Source: Mobula hypostoma (lineage: Eukaryota). Taken from it: a stretch of DNA of 64,000 bases. This document shows, one piece after another, positions 11,656 through 59,349 of this stretch. Below the pieces are notes generated by a model. That model searched no databases, was not told where the DNA came from, and saw only the letters and a list, made by a program, of their open reading frames with translations. A program made the position numbers and the translations under genes. The stretch spans positions 40,550,001 through 40,614,000 of the forward strand of contig NC_086097.1 in NCBI RefSeq assembly GCF_963921235.1, in the 5' to 3' direction. How positions within the stretch are numbered: position 1 is the stretch's first letter; every line of letters starts with the position of its first letter.

Positions 11656-11871
11656 GGTGGCGGGGGGGGGGGCATTGCACAGGATGGAAAAAGCTGCAGA
11701 AAGTTGCAAAACTTAGCCAGCTGCATCAGTCACTGGCCTTCCTAGCGTCCAGGACATCTACAAAAGGCGATATGCGTCATTAAGAGCTCCCATCACCCAG
11801 GTCATCCCCTGTTCTCATTGCTACAATCAAGGAGGAGGTATAGGATCCTGAAGACACACACTCAGTTTTAG

Positions 11872-12039
11872 CTACAGTCGACGTTTCGGGCCGAGACCCT
11901 TCGTAGTCCTGACGAAGGGTCTCGGCCTGAAACGTCGACTGTACCTCTTCCTAGAGATGCTGCCTGGCCTGCTGCGTTCACCAGCAACTTTGATGTGTGT
12001 TACTTGAAATTCCAGCATCTGCAGATTTCCTCGTGTTTG
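11872..12039 (+). mobile_element. Penelope pseudo-LTR-derived insert with inverted 5' arm
   Basis: 32-bp inverted repeat (11873-11904 / 11912-11943, 1 mismatch). Flanked by CACTCAGTTT(T/C)AG at 11859-11871 and 12040-12052. Homologous to the terminus next to the GIY-YIG relic at 30232-30310. Confidence 0.85.
11905..11940 (+). ncRNA. Minimal type I hammerhead ribozyme motif
   Basis: AGTC (stem I) CTGACGA A GGGT-CTCG-GCCT (stem II) GAAA C GTC^ GACT (stem I'). Palindromic ACGT in place of stem III; predicted cleavage after C11936. Confidence 0.8.
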
Positions 12040-13289
12040 CACTCAGTTTCAGAGACAGCTTCTTCCGCTCCACCATCAGATTTCTGAATGGACAATGAAC
12101 CCATGAATATTCTGAATCCTGATTTTTTTTTTGCTCTTTTAGGCTCTCTTTTGCACTACTTCTTTAATTTAACTTTTTCCACATATATTTCTTATTGTAA
12201 TTTATTTTAAAAATTATTATTGTGTATTACAATGCAGTGGCTGCTGCAAAACAACAGATTTCACGACAATATGCTAGATCCTTAAATTGTAGTCCACTGT
12301 TCAGTAATGTGTTGTAATCAATTCATAAAGTGGAAAGGCGCTAATGCAACCAGCAGTTTCCGTGAAACCAGTCACGAGACCAGATTATTGAATCACCAAG
12401 TCTGATTTACACTGACTTGGATGGTAGGTTAGTTCCAGCCGCAAAGGGGAATAATTGTTTCTTTTCTGTTAGATGGTTCTCGCCAAAGCCTTGGAGTTTA
12501 GTCTGTTGCAACTACCAAAAATGCAGGGGCCTTTTCCGTTCTCCAGGTATCCTCCTTTCCGAGTAACTTCATGCATCTCTCCGCCTAAGGTACTGTGTAC
12601 TGCTGTTACTGAAGGCTTCCCGTGTGTGCGCAGCAGAAGGGTAAAACGATCGTCGTTACGGCTAGTATCCAAAGACACGCGTTCCACTCTCACCACCGCA
12701 ATTCCAGTCAGCTGGTCTTAATAATGATTATGAAATTTGTAGATTGTATGGAATCTCTTTTCGTTCAACAATGTCCGCGAGAGTGTGAAATCTACCTTTT
12801 TGTTCCTGTTTGACCAAGATTTGACTTCAGACCCTAACATTGCAGTTACTCTGAAACGGCTTTGCGAGCGAATCTGCTAGGGAACAGTGACTGATAGACA
12901 GTAAACGCCGGCACTCGCAATGATGCCTATCACGTGGAAGATGAATTTGAAGGCGCCAGCTAACCAGGGATCGTCTTTCTGTAATACAGACAGAGAACTT
13001 AAGGATCACAGTCGCCCAGCCTGCGTCCTCGGACAAGGGGGATGTTTCATTGGCCGAGTAGGTTTCAAACTTTGCAGATGGCCTTTCCGAATTAAAAAAA
13101 AATGTTGATAAGCAGGCCTGGTCTAATCCGCCAGCTTTGGATGGCTAGATGGTACCTTACCCTGTAATAAATGTTTGTGTACAACTTCGCAAGGCATTAA
13201 ATACAGATACATTTTTCATATAGTTCAAAAAGGCATTTGAGAACTTAAACAAACAAAGGCGACAATTGCAATCAGTGGGATGATGTGGT

Positions 13290-16143: not shown

Positions 16144-16675
16144 TTAGGAGAGGATATGAGTGGCAGATATTATTGTTGTGCGGTTGGTTGTGTGAATGGA
16201 CATTTAAAACTGCCCACTGAATTAACCCAACGTTCAGTTCGTTGGACAGGACAAGATGCTCAGTATAGAAGGGGACCGTAACCAGAGGTTGAGTCGGCAG
16301 TGTTTTCTGGAGGCTGGACTCATTTCCTGGCTCCGGATATTTCTGCGTGCGAATACTGCAAAGGAATTCTATCCTGGAATAAAACCACACGTTGATATCC
16401 GTTCTCTGTTATTTGTTTTTCATGAGTTACTTAGCCCATCCGTTTCCCCGCATACACTGAAGCCTCGCTCACCTTGGCTGCAGTGGGTTGCCTGTGCATA
16501 GTCAAATGCAAAATCTTTGGGCACAGAGCGATCCGTTGTTTGGGGCAAAATAAACCCCAGGAACCGATTTCGCAAAAGTTTGGTTCCGAACTCTTAAATT
16601 CAGGTTCGTGACAAGGACCCAGCTGATCAAACAATCATTTTTTTAAAACTGAAATATTTTAAACAAATTTCCAGC

Positions 16676-16880
16676 AAAAAAAAACTACGAGAGGAAATCG
16701 GCAGGCCAGGTAGCACCTGTGGGGGAAAATGGACAGTCGATGTTTTTGGTTGGGGCCCCTTATCAGGTTTGAGTCTTGATACGAAATATCAAGGGTCCAG
16801 TTCCATCAACAGAAGCCCCGATGGGTTCTTCAAGCAGTTTGTTTTTCTTTGCTACAGATTCCAACAATCTCTTGCGTCTC
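16676..16880. mobile_element. Degenerate palindromic Penelope-terminus element
   Basis: GCAGGCCAGGTAGCACCTGTG...CAGTCGATGTTTTTGGTTGGGGCCCCTTATCAGG resembles the rc of the hammerhead-bearing terminus, followed by a decayed forward arm. Confidence 0.55.
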
Positions 16881-17399
16881 CATTTAACAAATGTCTAGCC
16901 GCAATTGAAATAATTTAAGTAGTTAAGATGAAGATAGGTTTATATTTGAAAGACGGAGGTTTATGGTTATTTGACATAAAGAAGATGCCAAGGCCTGGGT
17001 AGATTGTCAGGATCATACTGAATGGTGGAACAGGCCTGAGGGGCCGAGTGGCCTACTCCTGCTCCGGTGGTTTTGCGAACTTTCCGCGTAAGCGCAAAAC
17101 CTGAAACGTCCCAAGCAGTAGCTTATTTGCGAGGAGATACAGAGGAGCCCTAGTCATCGAGAAGAAACTGACCTCATCTGAGAACACGAAACTTCGACTC
17201 ACCTCTTATAAAGAGAGGGGTCTCGAGGAGCCGCGCCCCTTTCTGATTACCTGCCCCAGGAAGTGTCTGCTTAATGCTGTGCCCTGGAGTTTTGCTAGAG
17301 GGCCTCTTATGGAACTTTGTCTAATACGAACAAGGGGCTTCTCTAAAACATGCATGCATAAAATCATTGCGATTCCGTGCGCAAAAAAAAAGTGTTGGT

Positions 17400-23472: not shown

Positions 23473-24685
23473 TAGACACTAGGATACTACAGCACAGTAC
23501 AGGCCCTTCAGCCTTTGATATTGTGCCAACCCATATATTCCTTTTTTTTTAATAAAAAGTACTAAACCCACACTACCTCGTAACCCTCTATTTTTCTTTC
23601 ATCCATGTGCCTGTCCAAGAGGCTCTTCAATACTCCTAATGTTTTGGCCTCCACCACCATCCCTGGCAAGTCATTCCAGGCACCCACAACCCTCTGTGTA
23701 TAAAAAAAAAACTTACCCCTGATGTCTCCCCTAAATTTCCCTCCCTTAACTTTGTACATATGCCCTCTGGTGTTTGCTATTCATGCCTTGGGAAACAGGT
23801 ACTGGCTATCCACCCTATCTATGCCTCTCATAATCTTGTAGACCTCTATCAAGTCCCCTCTCATCCTTCTATGCTCCAAAGAGAAAAGTCCCAGCTCTGC
23901 TAACCTTGCCTCATAAGACTTATTTTCCAATCCAGGCAACATCCTGGTAAATTTCCTCTGCACCCTCTCCATAGCTTCCACATCCTTCCTATAATAAGGT
24001 GACCAGAACGGAACACAATACTCTAAGTGTGGTTTCACCCAAGACTTGTGGAGTTGCAACATGACCTCTGTACTCTTGAACTCAATCCCCCTATTAATGA
24101 AGCCTAGCATCCCATAAGCCTTCTTAACTATCCTATCAACCTGTGCAGTGACCTTGAGGGATGTATGGATTTGAACCCCAAGGTCCCTCTGTTCACCCAC
24201 ACTCTTAAGTAACCGACCATTAACCCTGTACTCAGCCTTCTGGTTTGTCCTTCCAAAATGCATCATCTCACACTTATCCGGATTGAACTCCATCTGCCAC
24301 TTTTCTTCCCAACTCTGTATCCTGTCTATATCCTCTTGTAACCTTCGACAACCTACAGCTCCATCCACAACTCCTCCAGTCTTCATGTCATCTGCAAACT
24401 TACTCACCCATCATTCCACCTCTTCATCCAGGTCATTTATAAAAATCACAAAGAGCAGGGGTCCCAGGACAGATCCTTGCGGCACTCCACTAGTCACCGA
24501 CCTCCAGGCAGAATACTTTCCTTCCACTACTACCCTCTGCTTTCTTCCTGTAAGCCAATTTTTTACCAAACAGCCATGCCTCATGACTTTCTGAATGAGT
24601 CTCTTGTGGGGGACCTTGTCAAATGCCTTGCTAAAATCCATGTAGACCACATCTACTGCCCTACCCTCATCAGTTTCCTTTGTTA
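23473..24685 (-). mobile_element. CR1 LINE RT and 3' end
   Basis: [56 protein letters not shown] on the minus strand. Confidence 0.95.
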
Positions 24686-26189
24686 CAAAGGGAAAGATTA
24701 GTTTGCATCAGTAATAAAGTACGACATCTATGAGATAAATGTATACTGGATGATGACTTGCAGTCATATTAATACATGCATCATGTCTACATAGGTCAGA
24801 TGCTAACCTAATTTGTATTATACCAACTATGAGAGATTCAGTTAATTTTACAAATTGGTGCATTTACTGTTGGATAGAAATGCAATGGATGCAGCTGTGC
24901 TATTCTTTATAAATATCTCTAATGAAAGAAAATTAGAGTAATTTTCAGTCCACAAAGAGCCCACCCTGCTCACGCGGCTTGCTGTTTTAGCTAGTAACTT
25001 AATCGCTGGACATCCCACAGAGTCCAACAGCTGAAGTAATTTTGAATTATTATGGCTGGAAATGTGGCTGCCAATTTGGAAGCAAGGATCCATGAACAGT
25101 TCAATACTAGTTGGGCTTAGGCCGATAAATTGAGAATAACTATTGTCCAGAATTCTTGCTTTTAATGATATTTAGATTCAAACAGCTTACTTGGATTTTA
25201 ATGCCCTATCAAAAAGCCTGCATGTCATTCAGTCATGCTGAGATATTAGATGTGTGATCAAGTGTCTGGAGTGTGAGTTATATGTTTAACCTCCTAACGT
25301 AATGGAATGGATGCTAACTGAAGAAGTTCTACTAATCCCTATAGGAAAAAATACACTTTTTATGCTAGTTATGAACAAGCTTTGTGTATTTTGTAGGGCT
25401 ATCATTTACAGAAACATGTAAAAACAAATTCATTTTATATTTACTGTTATTAACTTTCAAAACCTGATTGGTCATATTTACCACTGTGGATTGTGGATCA
25501 ACGTGGAAGCACACTCTGACTCAGCATAATAGGAAGCCCATCATACCAATCCTGACGCTTTCATGGGCTTTCCACGTGATCCCTCTCCTGTTTTGCAGCT
25601 CCAAATATTTATTCTGTTTGTTTTTGAGCATTATAATTGAACCTGCTTCCATCACTGCAGACTTGCCCCGAGTCCTTTTTAATTTGTAGTTCTATTCTTC
25701 ATTGTAGTGACAATGACTTCGCCTGTTAAATTTCATTTGACGTAGTTTGACTCTCATCATTAAATCTCCCCTGAAATCAGTGACTGTTTATTGTTTACTA
25801 AACCCCTCATTATCATTTCAAAGTGTCGGAATCGTGGCTTCAGTACCAAAATCCAAGGCATTTAAAGAGTAATATGCTTTGTACAGACCTCCTGGGGGAA
25901 ACAACTGTTTATTTTCCTTCAGTGTAGAAAATGTCCTTTCCAATTATTTTTCATCTAATTTTGTATTTCTGTTGTTTCCATGCCTAGTTTCCAAATGGTT
26001 CTTGTTTTCTGACTGACTGCATTCTATGTCCTCTTACCATCAATAATTATGGAGGTAGTCTCATGCAATTTCTTTGATCAATTAGTGGAGTACAAACACT
26101 GTAAAGAAACTGTCTTCTCCTTCAGCCACCTCCGCGTTGCTTGTATACTCAACATGTCACAGTTTCCAGTTGTACCTCCCATGGATATA

Positions 26190-27135: not shown

Positions 27136-29899
27136 TTAGATCCTTCGGCTTTTTCTACCATTGAACTGATGATCTGGACCTTAACATCCTCTTCTTATGT
27201 TTTACATTCTTTTTACCAAATAACATTCTATCTATTCGTTATGAAAAGTCCAATGATCTTAGCATCAATGCTTTTTATTTGATGGTGAAGGAATGGAAAA
27301 GTGCACCAGATTTTCATTGATCTTTGCCTGGGTGATGGTAAATATGCTGGTTTTCCACTGGTAAAATAGCTCAGATTTTAAAAGTTTTATGACCTCTTGT
27401 GATGGATCATCTAGTGGAAAGCTTAACTAAACCCTGTAGATTTAAAAATAAAAATATATTTATTTTTGTTAAATCCCATATTCATAAATGTACATTACTT
27501 TGTATCTGGATATCAGTGCACTTTAAGCCTTAGTATCCTTCTACTGAATCTACAGTCTATTCACTATTGGATCAATAAATCTTGCTGAGAGTCAATGCAC
27601 ATACTCAAGCATATTCTTGTGAATTGATCTGATCAAGCCTGTCTTACAAGTGAAACATTGCTTCTCAATTTTTAATCCCCAAAACAATTGATGCATTAAC
27701 CTTGATGATTACATTTGGCATGTGTGAGTTTGCTTTTAGTTTTGTATATGCAGAGATAAATCTTATCGCTCTTTCACTTTTCCTAATCTCTAATCAGTAA
27801 GCAAATTTTCTAATCTGTCCAACGCAAACCCAAAGTGGCTGACTATACATCATGCTTTGAACACCATTTGCCATATTTTTTGCCTATTTACTCCCCCCCC
27901 CCGCTTGCTGAATTATTCTCCCTCTTTCTATAAATTAGTTTGTCCCTCTAAGTCCATCTCCGATTCAGATTTGTGAAACTCCATTACTTCATTCCTTTAA
28001 CATAATGAAAATGAAAAATTTCAGACCCCAGTACAGGTCCACTTGTCATATTCCATCAATCTTAAAATGACCCCTTTATCCCCATCCCTCTGTATTCTAT
28101 ATCCTTCAGCAATCCAGATTGTTCTCAATCTGTGCACTTTTTAATTTAGCTGACAATTCCCTTATTCACCAAGTTAGTGACCACCATAACTTCATAGATA
28201 AATCCTGACGTCTATGCTAACTCTTATGCTTGAATGCCCATCAGCTTGAGGACTGTATGCATATTTCTGATCACCCCTTATGGGAAGGATGTGGTTGCAC
28301 TGTAGAAAGCAGATTTCTAAAGATGTTACCAGGACTGGAAAATTACAAGGGGGTAAGAAAAGGTTGGATGTTAGGATGGTTTGCTTTGGAGTAATGGAGG
28401 TTGAGAAGAGACTTGCTTAAGGGAGAATGAATTGGAAGAACTTCTATCTCTTGGAGGCTGGAATATCAGGGGAATGGTTTTAAATTAATTGCTAGGAAAA
28501 TTGCAGGGGAGATGAGGATTTTGTTTTACCCAGTTGTATGCACATGTCTGGAACATGCTGTCTGAAAAGATGGATTAAAACATTCATCACATTTATAAAA
28601 TGCATGAATGTTGCTCCCTTCTGAGTCATAAATTTTTTCCATGATGTAATTCTGTTTCTATTCACTTGATGGGATGTGAGCAGTCTTGGTTTATTCCTGG
28701 AGATCATGTTAATTTGATCACCTTATCATTTGCAGTTTATCCATCCTGAATCACAAAACTGAAGAACTCTAATTTGCCCCTAATCCCCTTTAGATGATAA
28801 TCATTGGGTCCCAGAGATTTGACTATCTTAAATTCTGTTTCAAGGGGTATACAATCCTCTGTTTCTCCTTGACTTAGGTTTGGGTTCCCTTGTATTTCCC
28901 AGTATTGTATTCTCTTTCTCTACTCTGATAATTATCTAGACTGTTTGGTTAATCAGATAAATTGTTGCTTTTTCAATAGTTCTGTATGCTGCGTGTTGGG
29001 CACAATTCCTTTTTACCACTTTGTCAGTGGTTTTCAGTAAATTTTAATAGCCTTTATAAGGTATTGCAGCTTTCTATCTTTGTGCTTCCCTCTTGGTATT
29101 TTAATTGCATTTTATCATTTTATTTTATTCTGCTGGGTTTCTATTTCTTGTTTTTCTGTAGACTTTTTCATTTCACTTGATACTGTCTCCTTGCTGAACC
29201 ACGAGTGAAGCTTTTCTCTTTAACGTGTACATATTAGTTTGCAGTGAAATAACCTATTCAAATATTATGTTAGATTCAGATTTATTTGTTATCTCCAGTA
29301 GTGCACAAAAGACTTCCAGCCAGATTCAGTAGTCTTACATGATTCAATGCTTTTAGTGCATTTAAGTTTTTAGATTCTTCTGTTTAATTGTCCTCTAAGC
29401 TTTCCTTTGTCTTATTTATTACTCTAGATTTTTAATGTTTCCTGACTTCTACTACATCATAAACCTTTCCTTTTTTTCCCTTCACTCTTTTTCTTTCATC
29501 TTATAATTTTTTCAGTCCTGATGAAATGTCATCTGCTTGAAGTGCTAATTCTATTTCTCTCTCCACTGATGCCGCCTGACCTGCTGAGTGTTTCACGGCA
29601 ATTTGTCTTATCATTTCAACCCTATTTCCTGTAGCCAAGTTAATGTTCCTTGTGGGAAATCTGGGTTGCTGTTGATCATTAATAAAATCTGGATGTGTCT
29701 GTGTAGACTTACTGCTGGGTTATGGGATAGTGTTGGTTAATGCTGCCTATTACTGCTCTTTAATAGATGAGCTCAGCAATGCTCTGAGCTGATAAGTATT
29801 TTAATAAAGTATTCCATTGCCTATCACACATTAAGGCTATCCATTAGTCTTCTATTCAATTATATACATCTGCAAAGTAGTCAAATATATTAATATATT

Positions 29900-30130: not shown

Positions 30131-30231
30131 TTAACCATGTTAAAGCTAAGTCTTAGTCCGTCAGACTTCAACACTAGCCAAGCCAAAAGTGGGGTGCCGC
30201 AAGCATTTAAGTTTTTGAATATATTCTATGT

Positions 30232-30950
30232 TACACACACAAAATGCTGGAGGAACTGAGCAGGACAGGTAGCATCTATGTTTCAGGCTGAGACCCTTCA
30301 TCAGGACTGGAAAGGAAGGGAGAAGAAGCCAGTACAATACAAGAAGATGTGAGAAGGGGAGGATGAAGTACAAGGTGGCAGGTGATAGGTGAAATTGGGA
30401 GAAGGGGTGGGGTGTAGATAAGAGCTGGGAAGTTGATCGGTGGAAGAGAGAAAGGGCTGGAGAAAGGGGAATCTGATAAGAGAGGACAGGAAACCATGGA
30501 AGAAAGGGAAGCAGAAGGAGCCCCAGAGGGAGGTGATGGGCAGGTAAGGATAGAATCTGTGAGAGGGAAGTGGAAATCCAGAATGACAATGTGGGGGGGG
30601 GGGTGGAATTACAGAAATTTCAAGAAATTAATGTTCGTGCCATCAGGTTGGAAGCTACCCAAACAGAATATGAGGTGTTGCACCTCCAATCTGAGTGTGG
30701 TCTTATCATGGCAGGAGAGGAGGCCATGGACTGATGTGCTGGAATGGGAAGTCGAATCAAAATAGGTGGCCACTGGGAAATCCCACTTTTTGATGTGGAC
30801 GGAGTGAAGATGCGGATATACAGGAGGCCACACCGGGAGCATTGGATACAGTAGATGACCCCAGCAGAATTGCTGGGGAAGTGTCGCCTCACCTGGAAGG
30901 ACTGTTTGGGGCCTTGAATGGAGGGAGGAGGTGTAGGGGTTATTAGCGGT
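30232..30950 (-). mobile_element. Penelope-like element: GIY-YIG endonuclease relic plus pseudo-LTR
   Basis: Minus-strand peptides IQGPKQSFQVRRHFPSNSAGVIYCIQCSRCGLLYI and DFPVATYFDSTSHS..RLEVQHLIFCLGSFQPDGTNINF. Downstream terminus has AGTC CTGATGA A GGGT CTCA GCCT GAAAC with the cleavage site deleted. Confidence 0.9.
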
Positions 30951-34640: not shown

Positions 34641-35816
34641 TGTATGTAGAGGCACATAGAGATGTGTATGCTTTACAGAGAGTTGTGGAGAGATTTATAG
34701 GAATGGTTTCACTGAAAGGAGATTGAATATGATGGATCATGCAGATGCGAGATCAGGGTGGAAATTAGCAGAAAAGTGGTGTCATTTTGACTTTGGCCTC
34801 CGTCCGCTTGTATTTAGCCCTAATGAAGGTTCTTGGCCTGAAATATCAACTGTTTATTTTCCTCCATAGATGTTGCCTAAGCTACTGAGTTGTGGCATTT
34901 TGTCTGTTGACATTTATGAGTTCTGATTTTGTGCAATGCAGTCACTGATGTATTGAAAATGTATTGATGTATTTGGTCTCTGTTCAAAGAAGAAATGGAG
35001 GACCCTCAGACCTTGTTGATATGGGATGGGAGTGTAAAGGGGTTAAACAAATCATGGGTCGAGGTTAGGAGGGGGAATAAGAAGAATAAAGTAATAGAGA
35101 GCACCGCTGTGGCTGTGGCGCTTGACAATAAGTACTCCTATTTGAGTACTGTTGGGGGGGACAGCATACCTGGGGGAAGCAACAGCGGCCGTGCCTCTGG
35201 CACAGAGTCCAGCCCTGTAGCTAAGAAGGGTAGGGAACAGAAGAGGAGGGCAGTAGTAATAGTTAGGGGGTCAGATAGACGATTCTGTGGACGAAGTCAG
35301 GAGACCCGGATGGTCGTTTGCCTCCCTGGTGCCAGGGTCTGTGATGTTTCTGATCGCGTTCAAGAGATCTTGAAGTGAGAGGGAGAGGAGCCAGAGGTCG
35401 TGGTACGTATAGGTACCAATGACATAGGTTGGAAAAAGGGAGATGTCCTGAAAGAAGAATATAGGGAGTTAGGAAGGGAGTTGAAAAAAAGGATGACAAA
35501 GGTAGTAATCTCGGGATTACTGCCTGTGCCACGCGACAGTGAGAGTAGGAATGCAATGAGGTGGAGGATAAATGCGTGGCTGAGGGATTGGAGCAAGGGG
35601 CAGGGATTCGGGTTTTTGGATCATTGGGACCACTATTGGCGCAGGTGTGACCTGTACAAAAGGGACGGGTTGCACTTGAATCATAGGGGGACCAATATCC
35701 TGGCGGGGAGATTTGCGAGGGCTACCAAGGTGACTTTAAACTAGAATGGTTGGGGGGAAGGAGTCAAATTAAGGAGACTAGGAGAGGGTTAATGTAAGGG
35801 AAAAAGAAGAAGATAA

Positions 35817-36202
35817 CAACGCAAACACGAGGAATTCTGCAGATGCTGGAAATTCAAGCAACACAGATGAAAGTTGCTGGTGAACGCAGCAGCCAAGCAG
35901 CATCTCTAGGAAGAGGTACAGTCGACGTTTCAGGCCGAGACTCTTCGTCAGGACTAACTGAAGAAAGAGCTAGTAAGAGATTTAAGAGGGGGAGGGGGAG
36001 ATCCGAAATGACAGGAGAAGACAGGAGTGGGAGGGATGGAGCCAAGAGCTTGGACAGGTGATTGGCAAAAGGGTGATAGCGAGTCTGAGTCAAAATGTGG
36101 TCGAAAAGTTGAAGAGCCGAAGAAATTACAGATGGGGAGCAGTGAGAGATGGTTTCACTGAACTCCCGTCGAAGAAAAGATTTAAACTTCTTCAGTGTAA
36201 AC
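35817..36202 (-). mobile_element. Penelope-derived insert (pseudo-LTR with hammerhead motif, probably joined to the ORF start)
   Basis: 35820-35955 is close to the rc of 11905-12040; hammerhead motif at rc 35920-35955. 36075-36202 (TLKKFKSFLRREFSETISHCSPSVISSALQLFDHILTQTRYH) is tentatively the element's N-terminus. Confidence 0.8.
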
Positions 36203-36286
36203 AAAGTTGTTTGCTCAATTATGGATAAACAGAGTGGGAGGGGGAGAGTTTCTTAAATGCATCTATTTTAATGTTAGCATTGTAAG

Positions 36287-36784
36287 TGTTACATGATCAA
36301 GGAGATCTGTTTTTTTTAGTGAGAATGATGTAATGGTCTTTTGGAGGTCACCTGATGTGATTTTCCTGCCGATGTGAGGTCACATGATGACATGTGCCTC
36401 GTGACTATATAAGGGTCGACCCAGGTGACGCAGGGGTTTTTTTTAGTTTGTAGATTTCCAGGTAGAGCGTGCTGTATCTCCGTTTCTGTTGTGTGTTTGT
36501 TTTTGGTGATGCAGTTTCATTTTTAAAACGGAGTGTGCGTTCTGTTGCAAAATTCCATATTATTTGGACTGGAAATTTTTGCTAGATGTGTTGATTTACT
36601 CAATTCCAACATTAGAAGGGAGAGTGAAGAACTTATTGAAGCTACAGGATGGAAGGATCAAGAGGTGTCGGCATCATTTGGCAGTTTAATAAAGGATCGA
36701 CCTTATTGAGTCTTCACTGGAGGAGTAGCTACCGGCATCGAGATAACTCTTGCCACAAAGAGCAAGGAGTTCATGCAAAAAGGT

Positions 36785-36863
<79 letters not shown>

Positions 36864-36912
36864 CTTTCTCTCTCTTTCTCTCTCTTTCTCTTTCTCTCTC
36901 TTTCTCTCTCTT

Positions 36913-36993
<81 letters not shown>

Positions 36994-37506
36994 CTTTCTC
37001 TCTCTTTCTCTCTCTTTCTCTCTCTTTCTCTCTCTTTCTCTCTCTTTCTCTCTCTTTCTCTCTCTTTCTCTCTCTTTCTCTCTCTTTCTCTCTCTTTCTT
37101 TCTCTCTCTCTCTTTTCTCCCCCCCCCCAAGGAATTTAAAGTCAGTTGATTTAGACTGTTTATTTTCGGCATTGTGAATCCTGTGGACAGAACCAGCAGT
37201 AAAATTGCGTCTGAAGAAATCCTTCTCCAGAGAAGTCTCTCCCAATTGAACGTGTAAATCTGTTGGACTTTCGAAGTTATCGCTTTAAGAACTATATTTG
37301 ACTTTATTGCTTTAAGAACTGTTTTCGCATTTAACGCTTTAAGAACCAGAGCTGAGTGTCAAGTTGGTGAACGGCTGCATATCTGTTAACTTCCGGTTAA
37401 AGTTTTCGTTTGTTTTTTCCTTATCATTTATCCGTGTTTAATAAATGTTTGGTTGTTTTTATATAACCTGTCTCGATTGATATTCATTGTTGCTGTTTAC
37501 GTAACA
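36287..37506 (+). mobile_element. Solo LTR (Gypsy/ERV-type)
   Basis: Termini TGTTAC...GTAACA; 4-bp TSD TAAG (36283-36286, 37507-37510); TATATAA at 36406-36412; AATAAA at 37440-37445. Removing it restores CR1 ORF2 SIVRKVDELRAW. Confidence 0.88.
36791..37112. repeat. Compound (CT)n / (CTCTCTCTTT)n microsatellite inside the solo LTR
   Basis: About 320 nt of pure pyrimidine on the + strand. Confidence 0.97.
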
Positions 37507-40374
37507 TAAGAAAGGTGGATGAGCTTAGAGCATGGATTGATACCTGGAAATATGATGTTGTAGCTATTAGTGAAATGTGGTTGCAGGAGGGGTGTGATTG
37601 GCAACTAAATATTCCAGGATTTCATTGCTTCAGGTGTGATAGAATAGGAGGGGCAAGAGGGGGAGGTGTTGCATTGCTTGTCAGAGATTATATAACAGCG
37701 GTGCTCTGGCAGGATAGATTACTGGACTCGTCTAGGGAGACTATTTGGGTGAAATTGAGGAATAGGAAAGGTGTTGTGATGCTTATAGGGGTGTATTATA
37801 GACTACTTAATGGGGACCGAGAACTGGAGGAGCAAATTTGTAAGGAGATAGCAGATATTTGTAGGAAGCACAAGGTCGTGATTGTGGGAGACTTTAATTT
37901 TCCACACATAGACTGGGAAGCCCATTCTGTAAAAGGGCTGGATGGTTTGGAGTTTGTAAAATGTGTGCAGATAGTTTTTTGAACCAATACATAGAGGTAC
38001 CAACTAGAGAAAGGGCAGTGTTGGATCTCCTGTTAGGGAATGAGACAGGGCGGGTGACGGAGGTATTTGTTGGGGAGCACTTCGGGTCCAGTGATCACAA
38101 TACACTTAGTTTCAGTGTAATTATGGAGAAGGATAGGACTGGACCTAGGATTGAGATTTTTGATTGGAGAAAGGCTAACTTTGAGGAGATGCGAAAGGAT
38201 TTAGAAGGAGTGGATTGGAAAAATTTGTTTTATGGGAAGGATGTAACAGAGAAATAGAGGTCATTTAAAGGTGAAATTTTGAGGGTTCAGAATCTTTATG
38301 TTCCTGTTAGGTTGAAAGGAAAGGTTAAAAGTTTGAGAGAGCCATGGTTTTCAAGCGATATTAGAAACTTGGTTCAGATAAAGAGAGAGATCTTCAATAA
38401 ATATAGGCAGCTTGGAGTTAATGAGGTACTTGAGGAATATAAAGAATGTAAAAAGAATCTTAAAGAAATTAGAAAAGCTAAAAGAAGATATGAGGCTGCT
38501 TTGGCAAGTAAGGTGAAAATAAATCCAAAGGGTTTCTACAGTTATATTAGTGGCAAAAGGATAGTGAGGGATAAAATTGGTCCCTTGGAGAATCAGAGTG
38601 GATGGCTATGTGTGGAGCCAAAAGAGATGGGGGAGATTTTGAACAATTTCTTTTCTTCGGTATTCACGAAGGAGACTGATATTGAATTGTGTAAGGTAAA
38701 GGAAACAAGTAGGGTAGTAATGGAAAGAATAACAATTAAAGAAGAGGAAGTACTGACACTTTTAAGGAATATAAAAGTGGATAAGTCTCCGGGTCAGGAC
38801 GAGATATTCCCTAGGACTTTGAAGGAAGTTAGTGTACGTATAACAGTGGCTCTGACAGAAATATTTCAAATGTCATTAGAAAGGGGAATGTTGCCAGAGG
38901 ATTGGCATATTGCTCATGTGGTTCCATTGTTTAAAAAGTGTTCTAAGAGTAAACCTGGCAATTATCGGCCTGTGAGATTGATGTCAGTGGCGGGTAAATT
39001 GATGGAAAGTATTCTAAGAGATGGTATATGTAATTTTCTGGATAGACAGCGTCTGATTAGGAACCGTCAACGTGGATTTGTACATGGAAGGTCATGTTTG
39101 ACAAATCTTATTGAATTTTTTGATGAGGTTACTGAGAAAGTTGACGAGGGTAAAATGGTGGATGCTGTCGATATGGACTTCAGTAAGGCCTTTGACAAGG
39201 TTCCACACGGAAGGTTAGTTAGGAAGGTTTAATTGTTAGACATTAATATGGAAGTAGTAAAATGGATTCAGCAGTGGCTGGATGGGAGACGCCAGAGAGT
39301 AGTGGTGGATAACTGTGTGTCAGATTGGAGGACGGTGTGTAACGGTGTGCCTCAGGGATCTGTACTGGGTCCAATGTTGTTTGTCATATATATTAATGAT
39401 CTGGATGATGGGATGGTAAATTGGATTAGTAAGTATGCAGATGATACTAAGATAGGTGGTGTTGTGGATGATGAGGTAGGTTTTCAAAACTTGCGGTGAG
39501 ATTTAGGACAGTTAGAAGAGTGGGCTGAAAGCTGGCAGATGGAATTTAATGCTGAAAAATGTGAGGTGCTACATTTTGGTAGAACTAATAAAAATAGGAC
39601 ATACATGGTAAATGGTAGGGTATTGAAGAATGCTGTAGAACAGAGGGATCTAGGAATAATGGTGCATAGTTCCCTGAAGTTGGAATCTCATATGGATAGG
39701 GTGGTGAAGAAAGCTTTTGGTATGCTGGCCTTTATAAATCAGAGCATTGAGTATAGGAGTTGGGATGTAATGTTGAAATTGTACAAGGCATTGGTGAGGC
39801 CAAATTTGGAGTATTACGTACAGTTCTGGTCATTGAATTATAGGAAAGATGTCAATAAAATTGAGAGAGTACAGAGGAGGTTTACAAAAATGTTGCCTGG
39901 GTTTCAGCTCCTAAGTTACAGAGAAAGGTTGAACAAGTTAGGTCTTTATTCTTTGGAGCGTAGAAGGCTGAGGGGAGACTTGATAGAGGTGTTTAAAATT
40001 ATGAGGGGGATTGATAGATTTGACGTGGTTTGACTTTTTCCCATTGAGAGTCGGGAAAATTCAAACAAGAGGGCATGGGTTGAGAATTAGAGGACAAAAG
40101 TTTAGGGGTGACATGAGGGGGAACTTCTTTACTCAGAGAGTGGTAGCTGTGCGGAATGAGCTTCCAGCAGAAGTGGTTGAGACAGGTTCTATGTTGTCAT
40201 TTAAAGTTAAATTGGATAGATATATGGACAGGAAAGGTATGGAGGGTTATGGGCTGAGTGCAGGTCAGTGGGAATAGGATAGGGTAAGAGTTCGGCACGG
40301 ACTAGAAGGGCCAAGATGGCCTTTTTCCGTGCTGTAATTGTTACATGGTTATATATGGTTATATGGTGAAGCTG

Positions 40375-41136: not shown

Positions 41137-41575
41137 TTCAAAGGTCAAAGTAAATTTATTATCCATGTACTTACATGTCACCATATACTACCCTGAGATT
41201 CATTTTCTTGAGGATATTCACAGTAGAACAAAGAAATACAACATGATCAATAAAAGGCTACCCACAAAAAAAACTGACAACCGATGTGCCAAAGAGGATA
41301 ACTGTACAAATGAAAAAGCTAAAAATAAAAACTGCAAATAAATAATTAATATTAAGAACATAAGTTGTAGAGCCCTTGAGGGTGAGTCCATGGGTTGTTG
41401 AATCAGTTCAGTGTTGAGGTGAGTGAAGTTATCTGCACTAGTTCAGGAGCTTGATGGTTGAAGGGTAATAACTGTTTCTGAACCTGGTGATGTGGGACCT
41501 AAGGCTCCTGTACCTCCTTCCTGATGGCAGCAATGAGAAGAGAGCATCGCCTGAATGGTGGACATTCTTAATGAT
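41137..41575 (-). mobile_element. Rex1/Babar LINE 3' fragment inserted in an older CR1
   Basis: Tail GTTCAAAGGTCAAAGTAAATTTATTATC and AGGCTCCTGTACCTCCTTCCTGATGGCAGCAATGAGAAGAGAGCAT. Confidence 0.8.
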
Positions 41576-43050: not shown

Positions 43051-43500
43051 GTTTCTCTGTGAGCTCTGAGGCTGAATGGCTCATGTTGCCCTATGGGTCA
43101 TTCACTGTGATTCTCGTATTCTCATCAGCCGGTTAAAATCATGTGTAATGCCAATCTTCCTATTCACACAGACATTGTGAAACCACAGCATAAGCTTCCT
43201 AATTTATGTTGACTTTTTTGTGAAATGACCCCCGATATCTACGACATAGGCACAAATCTTTGAACAATTTAGGAGGCACGCCGCCATGCTTTACCACAAA
43301 TAGATTTATGTGGCTTAGCCCAACACCTCTTTTTCAACCCGAGGGGATGATGACCTTGATGGTTGCATGGGTCATGGATGTTGTCGCTATCTGCTCAATC
43401 ACTGGATGATGCTTGGTGATCTGAAATCTGTTTGTAAGTTTGGAACACCTATTAGATTTCTGACAAGAGTTACCATATTTCTCCAATTGGATTCTTGGGA

Positions 43501-43589
43501 CACACATCAAAGTTGCTGGTGAAAGCAGCAGGCCAGGCAGCATCTGTAGGAAGAGGTGCAGTCGACGTTTCAGGCCGAGACCCTTCATC
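43501..43589 (-). mobile_element. 89-bp Penelope-terminus insertion with perfect TSD
   Basis: TGGATTCTTGGGA at 43488-43500 and 43590-43602; insert is the rc of the hammerhead-bearing terminus. Confidence 0.9.
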
Positions 43590-43747
43590 TGGATTCTTGG
43601 GATATTGATTGGATGGATGGATTGGGCAACCACGAAGCTTTGTTTTGTTCCTTATAACCATTCATAACCAATAATGGGAGAGGTGACGACTGAAAGTGCC
43701 ATAGAGAATTTGATTTGTGTGGGGTTATTTCCTCATCCAGTTGACTA

Positions 43748-44705
43748 TCAGAGCCAGATTTATTATCACTGTCTTAAATGGCATGAAATTTGTTATTTTG
43801 CATCAGCAGTCCAGTATAAAGACATAAAATTATTATAAATCACAAGTTATGCAGTGCAAGAGGAATAATGAGGTTGTGTTCGTGTACTGTCCAGAAATCT
43901 GATGATGGAGGGAAGAAGCTGTCCTGAATCATTGAGCATGGATCTTCAGGCTCCTGTACCTCATTCCTCATGGTAATAAGAGGATGAAAGCATGTCTTGG
44001 ATGTTGTGGGTCCTTAATGATAGATGTTGCCTTTTTGAGATGCTGCCTAAACGGTGGAGGATGTTGTGATGGTGCTGGCGAGTCTACAACACCAGCAACC
44101 TCTTGATATCCTGTGCACTAGAGTCTCCATACCAAATGATGATGCCACCAGTCAGTCTCCAGAAATTTGCAAGAGTCTTTCATGGCATATCAAATCTCTT
44201 CAAACTTGTAATGAAGTAAAGCCACTGGGGTACCTTCTGCAACAATGTGTTCACCCCAGGACTGATCCTCAGATGTTGACACCCAAGGTCTTCAGCTGCT
44301 CCCCCTTTCCACCACTGACCCCTCAATAAGGAAAGGTAGATATCCTCCTGACATTTCCTTCCTGAATTTCACAGTCTTGCTGACACTGAGTGCAAAGTTA
44401 TTGTTGTGATACCACTCAACCAGCAGATCTATCTCATTCCTGAACATCTTATCACCACCTGAGATTCTGCTCACTGCAGCTATCATCAGTAAATTTATAA
44501 ATGGCATTTGAGCTATACCTAGCTACACAGTTATGAGTCTAAAGAGGGCAGAGTAGTGGGCTAAGCATGCATTCTTGAGGTGCACCTTGGTTGTTTGTCA
44601 TTAAGGAGGAGAGGTTATCACTGTTCTGCACTGACTATGGCTTATCAATGAAGAAGCCAAGGATTTAATTGCAGAGGGAGGTTCAGAGGCCTGGGTTCAG
44701 AAGCT
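43748..44705 (-). mobile_element. Rex1/Babar LINE RT and 3' end, decayed
   Basis: RISGGDKMFRNEIDLLVEWYHNNNFALSVSKT; tail TCAGAGCCAGATTTATTATCAC. Confidence 0.85.
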
Positions 44706-46203: not shown

Positions 46204-46424
46204 AATAAAACAGTAGTATAATTTAGTTGAAACTTCACAGATCTGTAGATTCTCACGTTATTCTTCTAGCTTTTTTGGCCAAGTAGAATTGGGTCTGGGT
46301 TGTAGATCCCAGGAATTCTTTATTTCCAGAAGTCAATGGAAGCTCAGTGGTTGATTATGATCATGGCTGGATGTCAACAAAGGATCAACCATGTGTTAAA
46401 TAATGGAATAACTTCATGATATTC

Positions 46425-46920
46425 ATATAGTCATCGACTGGTACAGCAAAGAAACAGGCCCACTGACCAACCATCAACCACTTACTTTTGCAAAAACTTT
46501 TTTTTCTCTCCTGACTTCCCATCACATATCCTGATTCTACCACTCACCCATATTCTCGGGATAATTCCATACACAATTAACCTACCAATTCAAAAACACA
46601 AAATAATCTGTAGATGTTGGGGTCAAAGCAACACTCACAACATGCTGGAGGAACTCAGCAGGTCGGGCAGCATCCTTGGAAAAGATCAGTCGACATTTCA
46701 GGTCGGTCCTGATGAAGGGTTCCGACCCGAATCGTCGACTGATCTTTTCCACGGATGCTGCCCGACCTGCTGAGTTCATACTACCAATTCACATCTTTGG
46801 GATGTGGGAGGAAACCAAAGCACGTGGAAGAAATGGGGAGAATGTCGGACACCATCTCCCCATATGGCACCGGAGGTCAGCATTCATCCTGGGATGCTGA
46901 AAATGTGAGGCATTAGCTGA
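46425..46920 (-). mobile_element. HE1-like V-SINE interrupted by a Penelope-derived palindrome
   Basis: CR1-like tail (TACAGCAAAGAAACAGGCCC) and CATCTTTGGGATGTGGGAGGAAACC V-domain-like sequence. Confidence 0.75.
46593..46780. mobile_element. Palindromic Penelope-terminus insert with hammerhead motif
   Basis: TSD CTACCAATTCA (46582-46592, 46781-46791); ~56-bp inverted arms 46651-46706 / 46722-46777; hammerhead motif 46705-46740 with GAAA changed to GAAT. Confidence 0.88.
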
Positions 46921-51310: not shown

Positions 51311-51311
51311 G

Positions 51312-51502
51312 TGATGCACCATCAATAATTCCAAAAGACTGGAGGTAGGGCAAATACTGAAAGGCTTTTATTCACAGTAAAATGTGACTTCCAGCGTGCT
51401 GAATGTCTGCCGCTGGACTGAGGAGGAGGAGCAAGGTGAAATCGCCTTTATTCAGGGGGCTGTGGGAGGAGCCACAGGGGCAGTCAGCAGAGGGGTGTGT
51501 CC
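51312..51502 (-). mobile_element. Probable short LTR remnant, cut by the adjacent CR1
   Basis: The rc ends ...AATAAAAGCC...TTATTGATGGTGCATCA (polyA signal and CA terminus). It appears to resume as CCAGACAGGTAAATA near 52664. The other terminus and a TSD were not found. Confidence 0.4.
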
Positions 51503-52664
51503 ATAAGACCATAAGACAAAGGAGCAGAAGTAGGCCATTTGGCCCATCGAGTCTGCTCTGCCAGTTTATCATGAACTGATCCATTCTCCTATTTAGTCCC
51601 ACTCCCCTGCCTTCTCACCATAACCTTTGATGCCCTGGCTACTCAGATACCTACCAATCTCTGCCTTAAATACACCCAATGACTTGGCCTCCACTGCTGC
51701 CAGTGGCAACAAATTCCATAGATTCACCACACTCTGACTAAAAAAATTTCTTTGTATTTCTGTTCTGAAAGGGCGTCCTTCAATCCTTAAGTCATGCCCT
51801 CTCGTACTAGACTCTCCCATCATGGGAAACAACTTTGCCACATCCACTCTGTCCATGCCTTTTAACATTCGAAATGTTTCTGAGGTCTCCCCTCATTCTT
51901 CTAAACTCCAAGGAATACAGTCCAAGAGCAGACAAAAGTTCCTCATATGTTAACCCTCTCATTCCCGGAATCATTCTAGTGAATCTTCTCTGTACCCTCT
52001 CCAACGTCAGCACATCCTTTCTTAAATAAGGAGACCAAAACTGCCCACAGTACTCCAAGTGAGGTCTCACCAGCTCCTTATAGAGCCTCAACATCACATC
52101 CCTGCTCCTATACTCTATTCCTCTAGAAATAAATGCCAACATTGCATTCGCCTTCTTCACTACTGACTCAACCTGGAGGTTAACTTTAAAGGTATCCTGT
52201 ACGAGGACTCCCAAGTCCCGTTGCATCTCAGAACTTCGAATTCTCTCCCCATTTAAATAATAGTCTGCCCATTTATTTTTTCTGCCAAAGTGCATAACCA
52301 TATACTTTCCAACATTGTACTTCATTTGCCACTTCTCTGCCCATTCTTCCAATCTATCCAAGTCTCTCTGCAGACTGTCCATTTCCTCAGCACTACCGGC
52401 TCCTCCACCTATCTTCGTATCGTCAGCAAACTTAGCCACAAAGCCATCTATTCCATAATCCAAATCGTTGATGTACAATGTAAAAAGAAGCGGCCCCAAC
52501 ACTGATCCCTGTGGAACACCACTGGTAACCGGCAGCCAACCAGAATAGGATCCCTTTATTCCCACTCTCTGTTTTCTGCCAATCAGTCAATGCTCTATCC
52601 ACGTATGTAACTTTCCCTTAATTCCATGGGCTCTTATCTTGTTAAGTAGCCTCATGTGTGGCAC
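51503..52664 (-). mobile_element. CR1 LINE RT and 3' end, relatively young
   Basis: 252-aa ORF with [35 protein letters not shown]; tail (TCTTATGG)n. Confidence 0.95.
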
Positions 52665-55520: not shown

Positions 55521-55583
55521 AGGTCTGTAACCAATGGTGTTCTGCTGGGATGTATGTAAATATCTCTGTTTGTGAATGTCACT

Positions 55584-56420: not shown

Positions 56421-56971
56421 AGTGTAACTGTTTGTGATATGACCTTGATGGGAATGGAGATGGATTGGTTACTAAGTTTGCAGACGACATAAAAAAACTG
56501 CTGGAGGTGTGGAGAGTGTAGAAGGTTACAGCGGCATATAGATCAGTTACAGGCAGAGAAATGGTAGATGAACTTTAATCTGAACACGTGTTAAGTCCTG
56601 CACTTTAGGCGGTCAGTTGTAAGGAGAAAGTGTACCGTTAAGAGCAGGACCCTTATCAGCAATAATGTACAGAGGGATCTGTTCATATGCTGTCCTCTTG
56701 TGTTCTCACTGACTTCCATGTTCCTGTCAAGCCTCCAAGCTCCTTTTGTTATAGGGCCCATAAATTGAGGATGATAAAACTTTCCACCTTGCCAGCTCCC
56801 GACATGGGGGGATTAAATCCTGAAGTCTGACTATCTCATTAGTTTCCTGGATGAGCTTCTGAATTGATATCATTTCCATCACAAGCACCACCTGCGGAAA
56901 CATGGTCAGTCTCGGCACCTCATAATTTTGATTCATTTGATTCATCCCATCTATTCTGACACACCCCCGGC

Positions 56972-57200
56972 ACAGAATCAGAGCGTGGAAACAGGACTTT
57001 AAACCCATCGAGTCCATGCTGACTAAGCACCCAGTTTTTTTTACAGCTAATCCTACCTGAGCCCATTTTATTGTTCCCGGATTCTCATTAATTTCAGGAT
57101 GTTCCACAATTCATTTGCACACAGTAAGAAACTTACTTTAGCTGACATGGGTGTTATTGGAATGTGGGAGGAGAGTGAAGCACACAGAGAAAACCCACAT
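56972..57200 (-). mobile_element. HE1-like SINE remnant
   Basis: AGCGTGGAAACAGGAC tail and TTGGAATGTGGGAGGAGAGTGAAGCACACAGAGAAAACCCAC. Confidence 0.6.
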
Positions 57201-59137
57201 AGTTCAAAATGTCTCATTCGTTTTTCATGGGTGCTGCATAACCTGAATGTTTCCAGTATTTTGTGCTCTATTTCATGTGTTCAGCTTTTAAAAAAATATT
57301 TAGCAGTTTATCAAAACCAGGTTATTCTGAGAGTAAACAAGGATGGTCTTACTTCATTCTCTGGCAACCAATAGGAATATGCATAAAGTTGCTCCTCGGG
57401 TTCACCGTTTCTTTCAGCAGTACAGCACTTCCTTCTTTTGGAGTTGATTGAATGAACTTCTTGTCCTTTATCTCCGCATTTCTGACAGCCCTCGTAGTGT
57501 TTTTCATAGACTACGATTACATATTATGGTTGAAACCAGATACAGCTCACATCAATCTCGATGTGTAAAACGTAAGCACTATTGTACCATCTTGCCACTT
57601 GTATGCATTTTTGACACATTGGCTTTAACTGCTTGTTTCTCTTGTATGTCTGGAGATTGAATAATCCTGTTAAGCCTCAAGGCTGCAATCATAATCTTTT
57701 GTAAAGTTAAAGGTTACTTTTTATAGTGTAATTCTCTTGTCAGATTACTGAGAACTACTGATGTAAGCAGGCAGGAACACTTGGTAGATTCTGATGTGCA
57801 TAGGGGATCTTTTTATGTCCCTTCTGATTTGACTCATTCTGAGTAGTCACTCTTTCCTGTCATTCTGCAAACTCATCTGTCAGAATGATCTTGCATCAAT
57901 GCAGAATTGTCCTGTGGCAAATATTTGAATTCAAAGAACTGTTTTACTCACTCACTACATTTCACATCCATGGAAAGTCATTTAGCAAAATGTATTTTAC
58001 AGCTGGTGTGCAGTATAAAAGCCTCACCAATTTTGGCAGTGTTCATAGAGGACGTAAGTGGTTGCAAAATCAATAGCAGTTTTAGTTAGAAATATGCAAA
58101 GTGCAAATATAACCATTTAGAAATCAGACTGTGCAAATAGAGATTGCTACCATCAAACATGATATTTATAAAATAAGTTTAACTTTAAAAATTGCACTTC
58201 ATAACATACTGCAGAGTTTGACTGAAAGTGCAACCCAAAAAAGTCATCTGGGTAATGATCCCTGTGGTCAGTTTGAGCAGTTGTTAATTCAGCCATCCTA
58301 TGTTAATTCCTTGGGGTAGCAGTAATCAAATAATCTTGAAGTGATGCACTATCAAATGGGTTTGTTTAAAAATTGTCCCAAATATTGATTTCTGGAGCTG
58401 CAGCTGTATATTACAATCTGAGAGCAATGGAACAACTACCCTTTGGGGAATACTCACAATGAGCAGATTGAGTGATATCTTTAATAATATTGTCCGGTTT
58501 ATTGTAAAATTAAAATATCTTGTCTGTGTCACTTCTGCTTGAAAATAACACTCATTGAATATTCCTTGTTGTGAAATGGGATTCCTTGTAAAATAAACAG
58601 AAATATATTCATGTTCCTGCAGGTGTACCTTTGGATCAAAGCATAAGAGATTTACTGAGCTGTCTTCTGTCCATTTCTCCTAGATTCCAGATGTACCAAC
58701 ATGGTAGTTTCAGCCAATGTCAGCAGCTTGTAAGATTGATCTAATTTACTTTGGCCTTTGCGTGGTTCCACTCTTGTCTTTGTCACCAATAAAGTTTACT
58801 TTCATGTCTCTGGGGTCTCTGTTAGAAAGTCCTAAGGATATGTCTAAGGCCCTCACTCTACCCATGCTACCTGATACCTCTTGGTGACATCTGCAGACAA
58901 GGGACTATCTTTCCAATGCACATTCAGTTCTTTCTCCTCCCTCTTTTCTTGCCTGATATTCAGCCATGTGTGGCCTGTTCGAGTATGTCTTGGAAAGTTA
59001 CAATATTCTTCAACTGAACATTAGCAAGAACAAAAGCCCTCTAATTCTGCTGCCATAACCTGTTAACTGTTTAGTTACCACCTACTTCTGCAGCACGTGA
59101 TTTTCAACTGAATCAAATCTTACTAAACTTTTGTATT

Positions 59138-59345
59138 CAAAATGCTGGAAGAACTCTGCAAGTTAGGCAGCTCCTATGAAGGGGAATAAACAGTCAATGT
59201 CTTGGGCCGAGACCCTCCGTATGTACTTTCAGGCCTCTGCCTGAAGCAATAACTGTTCATTCCCATCCATAGATGCTGCATGACTTGCTGAATTCCTCCA
59301 GCATTTTGTGTGTATTGCTCAAGATCTCCAACATCTGCAGAATCA
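59138..59345. mobile_element. Palindromic Penelope-terminus element
   Basis: Imperfect ~80-bp inverted arms, CAAAATGCTGGAAGAACTC...GGGCCGAGACCCT and GCCTGAAGC...GAATTCCTCCAGCATTTTG; hammerhead core lost. Confidence 0.8.
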
Positions 59346-59349
59346 TTCT

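Follow-up and report, generated by a model that had tools for sequence, protein, structure and literature searches.

The window, a 64-kb stretch (64,000 nucleotides) of the Mobula hypostoma genome on contig NC_086097.1, contains nine dispersed loci of one repeat, at positions 11872, 16676, 29514, 30232, 34816, 35817, 43501, 46593 and 59138. The repeats are the 3' terminus of a GIY-YIG Penelope-like element (PLE), that is, a minimal hammerhead motif followed by a tail. An nhmmer profile recovers all nine, the best arm at each locus scoring between E 2e-60 and E 8e-19; since the profile was built from the window's own arms, these matches are by construction. In five block-shuffled windows the same profile finds nothing better than E 0.5, and blastn also shows cross-matches between the loci. 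By both methods, the at least nine related copies counted in the first-pass annotation are real. Two weak extra pieces were found with the profile, at 57222-57265 (E 0.0045) and at 60511-60587 (plus strand, E 1.4e-6), the latter a heavily decayed tail fragment absent from the earlier list. Pattern scans for further copies in viral_contigs, metagenome_contigs and genome_contigs returned 0 loci. Positions within the motif are given with C3 of the catalytic core as 0, which puts the cleavage site at +27/+28.

The identity of the family comes from the copy at 30232, which spans about 700 bp on the minus strand. Its 3' UTR, hammerhead (C3 at 30304) and short tail end occupy 30233-30611, with a 21-nt deletion that removes the cleavage site. 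Joined to it, at 30612-30931 on the same strand, is a broken relic of a GIY-YIG endonuclease that is spread over two frames and carries an internal deletion, so the attachment of such a relic to one copy, as first annotated, holds. Both pieces of the relic match protein P0001, its best homologue (81% over 36 aa; 59%, E 3.6e-14), in which GIY-YIG itself matches below the Pfam cutoff (E 0.002); an Atlas lead for the relic also gives GIY-YIG, at 0.90. Pfam gave no match for three relic peptides, and nothing was found in a PDB sequence search or in word-index protein searches. P0001 carries the CX2-5CxxC linker between reverse transcriptase and endonuclease, a trait of the Neptune clade, and the relic is cut off just downstream of this linker. 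The source element is probably of Neptune type. No reverse transcriptase piece of this element is present within the 64-kb window.

Four other loci have a single arm. The young 5'-truncated copy at 35821-36073 (minus strand, at least 253 bp) has 122 nt upstream of the core, an intact core (C3 at 35951) and the long tail end; no target site duplication (TSD) was found around it, and searches including protein-level ones gave no identity for 36073-36195, the 120 nt upstream of it. Two decayed copies with broken cores lie on the plus strand at 29514-29612, preceded by a pyrimidine tract and CAG, and at 34815-34908, whose 5' end falls near -4 or as much as some 30 nt upstream of it. The 5' ends of both are not fixable (upstream similarity, p 0.04-0.94). 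The fourth is a young insertion of 89 bp at 43501-43589, within 43488-43602 on the minus strand when its TSDs are included; it runs from +2 to +90, the short tail end, and is thus truncated inside the CUGAUGA core as had been noted. The description of these repeats as tiny suits the short copies, but not 30232 and 35817, which are ordinary 5'-truncated copies.

The remaining four loci are palindromic, fewer than the word "often" in the first-pass annotation would suggest. The youngest lies at 11872, with an inverted arm at 11872-11904 (minus strand, +3 to about +35) and a main arm at 11905-12039 (plus strand) that starts at -4, or at -5 with a 1-nt microhomology, has an intact core (C3 at 11909) and reaches the long tail end at +130. 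At 46593-46780 there is a 188-bp insertion whose tail-bearing arm (minus strand) begins at about +13, while the other (plus strand) covers -2/-3 to about +70. An older palindrome occupies 59138-59357, its inverted arm (59138-59227) reaching about -4 and its main arm extending from about +4 to +12 to the long tail. An old one, at 16669-16882, consists of an inverted arm (about 16669-16771) reaching -1 to -5 and a main arm (16772-16882) from about +8. Arm mismatches are 2/33, 6/59, 19/81 and 35/82, respectively; two of the four palindromes are degenerate and their junctions uncertain by several bases.

Three insertions are flanked by clean TSDs: 13 bp with 1 mismatch at 11859-11871 and 12040-12052, within a host repeat; a perfect 13 bp at 43488-43500 and 43590-43602; and a perfect 11 bp at 46582-46592 and 46781-46791, so that the whole 46593 insertion spans 46582-46791. 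Only 2 of 2971 random position pairs score as high, which bears out the three duplications first annotated. A fourth, degenerate one of 10 bp (16659-16668 and 16883-16892) surrounds 16669-16882 and would arise by chance in about 2% of cases. The other five loci, 59138 among them, have no TSD beyond chance. Once the 11872 insert and one TSD copy are excised, the flanks again form a host repeat, which can be aligned over the former insertion site to three paralogues in the window; at four other loci the window offers no paralogue for this comparison.

The copies end at two fixed 3' positions about 40 nt apart, at about +90 and +130. The long end, at 35823, is confirmed in 4/4 runs of public contigs, where loose ends of low agreement gather (405, 416, 248 and 56). 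With this optional tail of 30-40 bp, a C-terminal endonuclease of the GIY-YIG type ahead of the terminal repeat, a minimal type I hammerhead within it, and inverted 5'-truncated copies (two arms at 4/9 loci) with variable TSDs of 13, 13, 11 and probably 10 bp, the layout is that published for endonuclease-bearing (EN+) PLEs. This architecture is already known, and the family itself is ordinary.

The hammerhead was called by direct reading against the published minimal descriptor, with helix I and the palindromic stub read from the sequence. Rfam did not detect it in the window; its three matches are below gathering and are all chance hairpin matches. The copies had been called ribozyme-bearing: the motif is present, but the catalytic core is intact at only two loci (11872 and 35817) and decayed at seven. 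Within the palindromes the cores are buried in hairpins, as with the intact core of 11872 in one of -65 kcal/mol. In both intact copies the monomer region folds no better than its shuffles (z 0.2 and 0.5). None of the nine loci starts or ends at the cleavage site and no arm of the four palindromes stops there; 5' ends defined by cleavage are rejected for the window.

The breakpoints of the palindromes fall elsewhere. In all four, one of the arms terminates 1-5 nt upstream of the core, and the other starts at about +3 to +14, so the junction placed at the hammerhead 5' edge by the first-pass annotation is right for one arm per palindrome and not for the other. Taking the more upstream inner end of each palindrome, the four junctions lie within 8 nt, an interval chosen post hoc (p 1.4e-4 over a 213-nt span, 0.023 over a 40-nt span). 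In public contigs, among the 15 joints listed out of 34, two of the four that change strand fall at position -2 itself, share no bases between the joined sequences and come from runs of two organisms. These statistics rest on four window junctions and two contigs. Breakpoints are thus concentrated at the ribozyme 5' edge as claimed. Of the five copies with a single arm, 43501 alone has a clear break at the hammerhead. A loose-end peak at 35955 (406, 363 and 295 contigs) was discarded as a truncation count, its consensus beginning like a different upstream sequence of the 30232 type.

The palindromes are not copies of each other. Junction, arm length and arm divergence vary among them, identity between the arms of separate loci is only 54-74%, and each belongs to a sequence type of its own. 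No structure is shared between any two short copies in the window, and the youngest palindrome is 98% identical to a copy that continues upstream. Because they differ in subfamily, junction, arm length and age, the four look like separate dead-on-arrival insertions and not like a retrozyme or MITE family. In three of the four, the arm reaching -1 to -5 has the shorter outer end, hence the longer arm cannot be its copy. At 46593, 59138 and 16676 each arm holds sequence absent from the other, which excludes a simple fold-back of one cDNA there and favours priming from both target strands. Microhomology amounts to 1 nt at the two well-preserved junctions and 0 nt at the two contig joints; with such values, an explanation by microhomology, through a CAG/CTG mini inverted repeat at the edge, is unneeded for these joins.

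Taken as a whole, we consider it likely that target-primed reverse transcription (TPRT) placed the terminal 90-130 bases of a GIY-YIG Penelope-like retrotransposon at each site in an independent event, every copy being dead on arrival, with both nicked target strands priming cDNAs in the palindromes and these being joined head-to-head. Under this explanation the ribozyme is a landmark in the insertions and not an acting enzyme. The TSDs would come from staggered nicks 10-13 bp apart, and the fixed ends from reverse transcription starting internally at about +90 or +130, a mechanism taken from Frangieh 2024. The template is uncleaved RNA, given that copies span the cleavage site. The first cDNA often ends at -5 to -2, as in all four palindromes, most likely by running off the 5' end of its template. 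The opposite target strand would supply another cDNA, joined to the first with 0-1 nt of microhomology after 5-18 nt are trimmed from one arm; this is how we account for the observed geometry.

Why the cDNAs end at this edge is a separate matter. In the three copies examined, a pyrimidine tract and YAG precede -2, with 95%, 75% and 80% pyrimidine, values reached by 0.05%, 4.5% and 2.1% of the AGs in the window, respectively. The stop coincides with this boundary, which resembles a splice acceptor or a transcription start. Conservation of the AG at -4/-3 is no evidence of splicing, since helix I depends on these bases too, and no exon-1 sequence or splice donor was found at any junction. In passages of PMC4209133, the Penelope intron of D. 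virilis ends at the 5' end of helix I, a precedent for such a boundary; Penelope copies are known to keep introns (PMC2377424), which counts against a splicing step. From these sequence features, we put at about evens the proposal that an abundant template RNA begins at the helix I edge, where transcription would start or a 3' splice site would lie. A fuller version, to which we give somewhat less than an even chance, is that the tiny copies are run-off cDNAs of the "strong-stop" kind, primed at the tail sites of the 5' pseudo-LTR (pLTR) and ending at the mRNA 5' end at this edge (transcription start or 3' splice site), with the palindromes made by a dimeric enzyme that primes both strands on two RNAs.

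A possible but less probable cause of the clustering is a reverse transcriptase stop on a long RNA, imposed by a folded or dimeric hammerhead or by a protein bound to the pyrimidine tract. All eight inner arm ends and the end of 43501 do lie within -5 to +14, in or beside the motif, and a cofold allows pairing between two copies of it. For a reverse transcriptase travelling in the 3'-to-5' direction, however, the 3' side of helix I (+28 to +32) would come first, and a stop caused by structure should lie there; the monomer folding given above is no better than that of shuffles.

Self-priming, with a single cDNA (or, after Arkhipova 2013, an antisense RNA template) folding back at the hammerhead edge to copy itself, is improbable. 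It has been proposed on an antisense template for head-to-head palindromic junctions, in a passage of PMC3846280, and 11872 would fit it with a main arm to -4, an inverted arm from +3 and a 7-nt loop. The private sequence in each arm of 46593, 59138 and 16676 is impossible from one self-copied cDNA, and 1 nt of microhomology at the two well-preserved junctions also speaks against it. The first-pass proposal of cDNA termination or template switching at the ribozyme is accordingly upheld for the concentration of breakpoints, but switching by fold-back fits only one palindrome of four.

A non-autonomous family of short forms that spread by themselves, in the manner of retrozymes or SINEs, with the Penelope protein mobilising them via small or circular RNAs, is very unlikely. 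The copies do lack coding sequence, are short and are flanked by TSDs, the repeat is highly abundant (70,619 contigs from run X1 match 301 bases), and animal retrozymes have been argued, in part of bioRxiv 10.64898/2026.07.22.740005, to derive from PLE pLTRs with dispersed monomers. Retrozymes would show head-to-tail tandem units with at least two complete hammerheads and monomer ends set by cleavage. The 12 tandem-repeat rows of the window include no hammerhead units, no locus begins at +27/+28, and the core is broken at 7/9 loci and buried in the palindromes. The one head-to-tail-type joint, in run X1, fits ordinary partial tandems. Contig coverage is likewise deep 60-80 nt upstream of the core, a weak sign against such a family, since this depth is not a copy number. 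Together with the lack of shared structure and the near identity of the youngest palindrome to a longer copy, this goes against the retrozyme-like family first suggested. DNA-transposon MITEs have a negligible chance: despite strong hairpins (z -11.5 and -17.1), the asymmetric termini (5-6/20 matching bases in 4/4 TSD-bounded inserts, hence not inverted repeats of each other) and the variable TSDs of 10-13 bp, with no fixed TA or 8-bp duplication, refute this reading, the sequence is continuous with the GIY-YIG relic, and the copies are retrotransposition products as the earlier annotation held.

Twin priming of L1, credited to Ostertag and Kazazian (2001), is said to let both target strands prime, with cDNAs joined mid-insert and the TSD kept, as in the window palindromes, and its arms reportedly cover adjacent, nearly non-overlapping parts of one RNA. 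In the window, by contrast, both arms cover the same stretch, which requires two RNAs or two pLTRs of one RNA.

Canonical EN+ PLE insertions (Pen2a_Av and relatives), as far as described in passages of PMC3846280 and PMC8557442, share the head-to-head inverted 5' copy overlapping the direct copy, the one-sided tail of 30-40 bp, variable TSDs and solo pLTRs. The window palindromes differ in being two termini without a body, of 168-220 bp, with TSDs of 10-13 bp instead of 8-10, and in having their junction at the helix I edge, which these passages do not mention. Metazoan PLE hammerheads of the minimal type I, in the corresponding part of PMC4209133, are also alike in their CUGANGA core, short helix I, palindromic stub without a real helix III and mostly single dispersed copies. 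That text notes opposite-strand pairs 100-700 bp apart, and insertion breakpoints are not mapped in it, unlike here. The PLE protein of the anole (Poseidon of Anolis carolinensis), according to sections of PMC11167929, is a predicted dimer that cleaves and extends both strands in vitro, using uncleaved RNA and two internal initiation sites that define the tail. The window element is instead probably of Neptune type, and two-armed products and 5' end points are absent from the analysis in those sections. Animal non-LTR retrozymes, in the part of bioRxiv 10.64898/2026.07.22.740005 concerned with them, are likewise short, non-coding, pLTR-derived and equipped with a type I hammerhead, but form head-to-tail tandem units with complete hammerheads, whereas the window repeats are single or head-to-head, heterogeneous and mostly core-broken. 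A literature search, with most subscription papers, Repbase entries and supplements outside its coverage, gave no paper treating this repeat family in cartilaginous fishes and none mapping PLE 5' breakpoints to the hammerhead edge.

The geometry of the junctions speaks against both a simple fold-back and ends set by cleavage, and it predicts an RNA end or a splice junction at -5 to -2. If the run-off reading is true, the mini-insertions would amount to a fossil record of where the element's transcript begins, like a 5' RACE map. The window repeats offer a testable handle on the origin of head-to-head insertions, on how the RNA 5' end is defined and on the role of the ribozyme in PLEs.

One sequence is common to all nine loci named in the first-pass annotation (11872, 16676, 29514, 30232, 34816, 35817, 43501, 46593 and 59138). 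A profile built from their own arms recovers 9/9 of them in the window, with two weak extra pieces, and finds nothing comparable on five shuffled windows. The three clean target-site duplications (TSDs) also hold, at 13 (1 mismatch), 13 and 11 bp, a score reached by 2 of 2971 random pairs. A degenerate 10-bp TSD (about 2% by chance) flanks the 16676 insert; at five of the nine loci a search of insert flanks found none. At 11872, a 168-bp unit was inserted as such, since the empty site, once rebuilt, can be aligned through the junction to three host-repeat paralogues; for this locus the earlier claim of insertion as a unit is borne out. The host repeat is a second dispersed family (11761-12140, 41452-41574, 43892-44035 and 63119-63260). 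The description of the copies as tiny and often palindromic suits the two-armed loci (4/9), and fails for 30232 and 35817, where sequence continues well upstream of the terminus. For 29514 and 34816, upstream sequence comparison fixes no 5' end.

What the loci share is a minimal type I hammerhead with a tail of 60-100 nt behind it. The hammerhead is built from helix I (AGUC/GACU), the CUGANGA core, helix II, GAAA and a palindromic stub replacing helix III, a layout described for metazoan Penelope-like elements (PLEs) in PMC4209133. Positions are counted in element sense from C3 of CUGANGA as 0, with the predicted cleavage site after +27. The core is intact at 2 of 9 loci. The 30232 copy lacks the cleavage site and helix I's 3' strand, owing to a 21-nt deletion at 30280-30290.

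At 30232 the terminus adjoins a broken ORF, and both pieces match its best protein homologue, P0001, at 81% and 59% (58 proteins returned at E up to 0.001). A weak GIY-YIG match in P0001 agrees with the proposed tie to Penelope, and the protein's CX3CxxC linker suggests the Neptune clade under the criterion of PMC8557442. Among nine protein matches scanned, two have a weak GIY-YIG match and several others are predicted host proteins with the same piece. The copies end at +90 or +130, a tail signature that two internal initiation sites account for in PMC11167929. Matching public contigs (70,619 in run X1, 45,286 in X5 and 22,098 in X12) show the family to be highly abundant in three organisms or more. 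On the features compared, namely the endonuclease, the hammerhead, the tail, the inverted 5' copies and the TSDs, the element works like and is an endonuclease-bearing (EN+) PLE.

There is no sign in the window that the short forms are a family. From +14 to +72, 11872, 35817 and 43501 are alike at 93-98% and differ in build, being two-armed, long and single-arm, respectively. Between different palindromes, arms are only 54-74% alike. Arm-to-arm mismatches of 2/33, 6/59, 19/81 and 35/82 make it likely that the four palindromes arose at very different times. The outer ends of the inverted arms all differ (about +35, +70, +85 and +100), and the palindromes fold into long hairpins with the hammerhead buried inside. 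The suggested non-autonomous retrozyme-like family is not upheld: retrozymes have tandem units and cleavage-defined ends, whereas the window contains no tandem hammerhead units and no ends set by cleavage. MITE tests failed as well, the insert termini not being inverted repeats of each other.

Breakpoints concentrate at the hammerhead 5' edge, as had been claimed. At 11872 the tail-bearing arm starts from -4/-5 and the inverted arm from +3. At 46593 the shorter arm runs to -2/-3 and the tail-bearing arm starts from about +13. The same layout, more decayed, is seen at 59138 (about -4, and +4 to +12) and 16676 (-1 to -5, and about +8). The four upstream-edge ends fall within 8 nt (p 1.4e-4 over a 213-nt span, 0.023 over 40 nt; n=4, window chosen afterwards). 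Among 15 displayed public-contig joints of 34, 4 change strand, two exactly at -2 with zero shared letters (X1, X12) and two at the tail end. A large peak of contig loose ends at -4 was left out of the count, since copies of the 30232 type carry a different sequence upstream and this confounds it. The cleavage site is a breakpoint at none of the nine loci. Because the copies read across it, the RNA used as template was uncleaved, as was that of the anole element in vitro (PMC11167929).

The right TSD's end, 43590-43593, agrees with element positions -2 to 0 and departs from the element once, at +1; in this one copy, too, reverse transcription may have stopped at -2, with the cDNA then annealing to the target. 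Against 35790-36090 (the 35817 copy), two contig joints combine an arm from exactly -2 with an inverted piece, apparently only the ~40-nt tail, and one further joint resembles a head-to-tail partial tandem.

Each arm at 46593, 59138 and 16676 holds sequence missing from its partner, which favours two-strand priming, where two cDNAs primed from both nicked target strands would be joined in the middle. For the anole protein, both strands are extended and a dimer is predicted (PMC11167929). Arkhipova 2013 (PMC3846280) explained junctions of this kind by self-priming on an antisense template. Fold-back of one cDNA is feasible only where the whole of one arm lies within the other, the one whose inner end is further upstream; this is seen at 11872 only, so the template switching first proposed for the palindromes fits one of four.

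A pyrimidine tract and YAG precede the stop spot in three copies examined, and its bases also fit the initiator consensus YYANWYY, a permissive one, with A at -4. The Penelope intron of D. virilis stops at the helix I 5' end (PMC4209133); it is 75 bp long and lies 46 bp beyond the transcription start (PMC2377424). From these features we infer that an abundant RNA would begin at -5 to -2, and that priming inside its 5' pseudo-LTR would yield short run-off cDNAs. It is possible that this RNA boundary is instead a 3' splice site, but no junction carries exon-1 sequence, introns are retained in PLE copies, and the AG belongs to helix I as well; a transcription start would be simpler. A structural stop of reverse transcription at the motif would be expected on its 3' side, not at -5 to -2.

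The 35817 copy is joined directly, on its upstream side, to about 120 nt (36073-36195, minus strand, open for 41 codons) for which database searches gave no identity. At 36073 the public contigs run on differently, which makes this a junction, perhaps from an internal deletion or a template jump that brought in another part of the element. The copy lies, with a CT-rich microsatellite (36788-37119), inside a decayed LINE (34968-40030) whose frames we label esterase-like, endonuclease-like and RT-like. Related relics, presumably CR1-type RT, account for the longest inverted-repeat pairs (7400-8900, 23600-24700, 39300-40000 and 52150-52660). A 39-42 bp minisatellite (about 45 copies; several frames open) occupies 932-2789.

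Inverted 5' copies, palindromic junctions, one-sided tails and solo pseudo-LTRs are in print for EN+ PLEs (PMC8557442, PMC3846280). No paper mapping breakpoints to the hammerhead edge was found in the literature searched, main texts only. The repeats are thus real and of a build known for PLEs, with one unexplained regularity, the junctions at the hammerhead edge, which deserves a genome-wide and RNA test.
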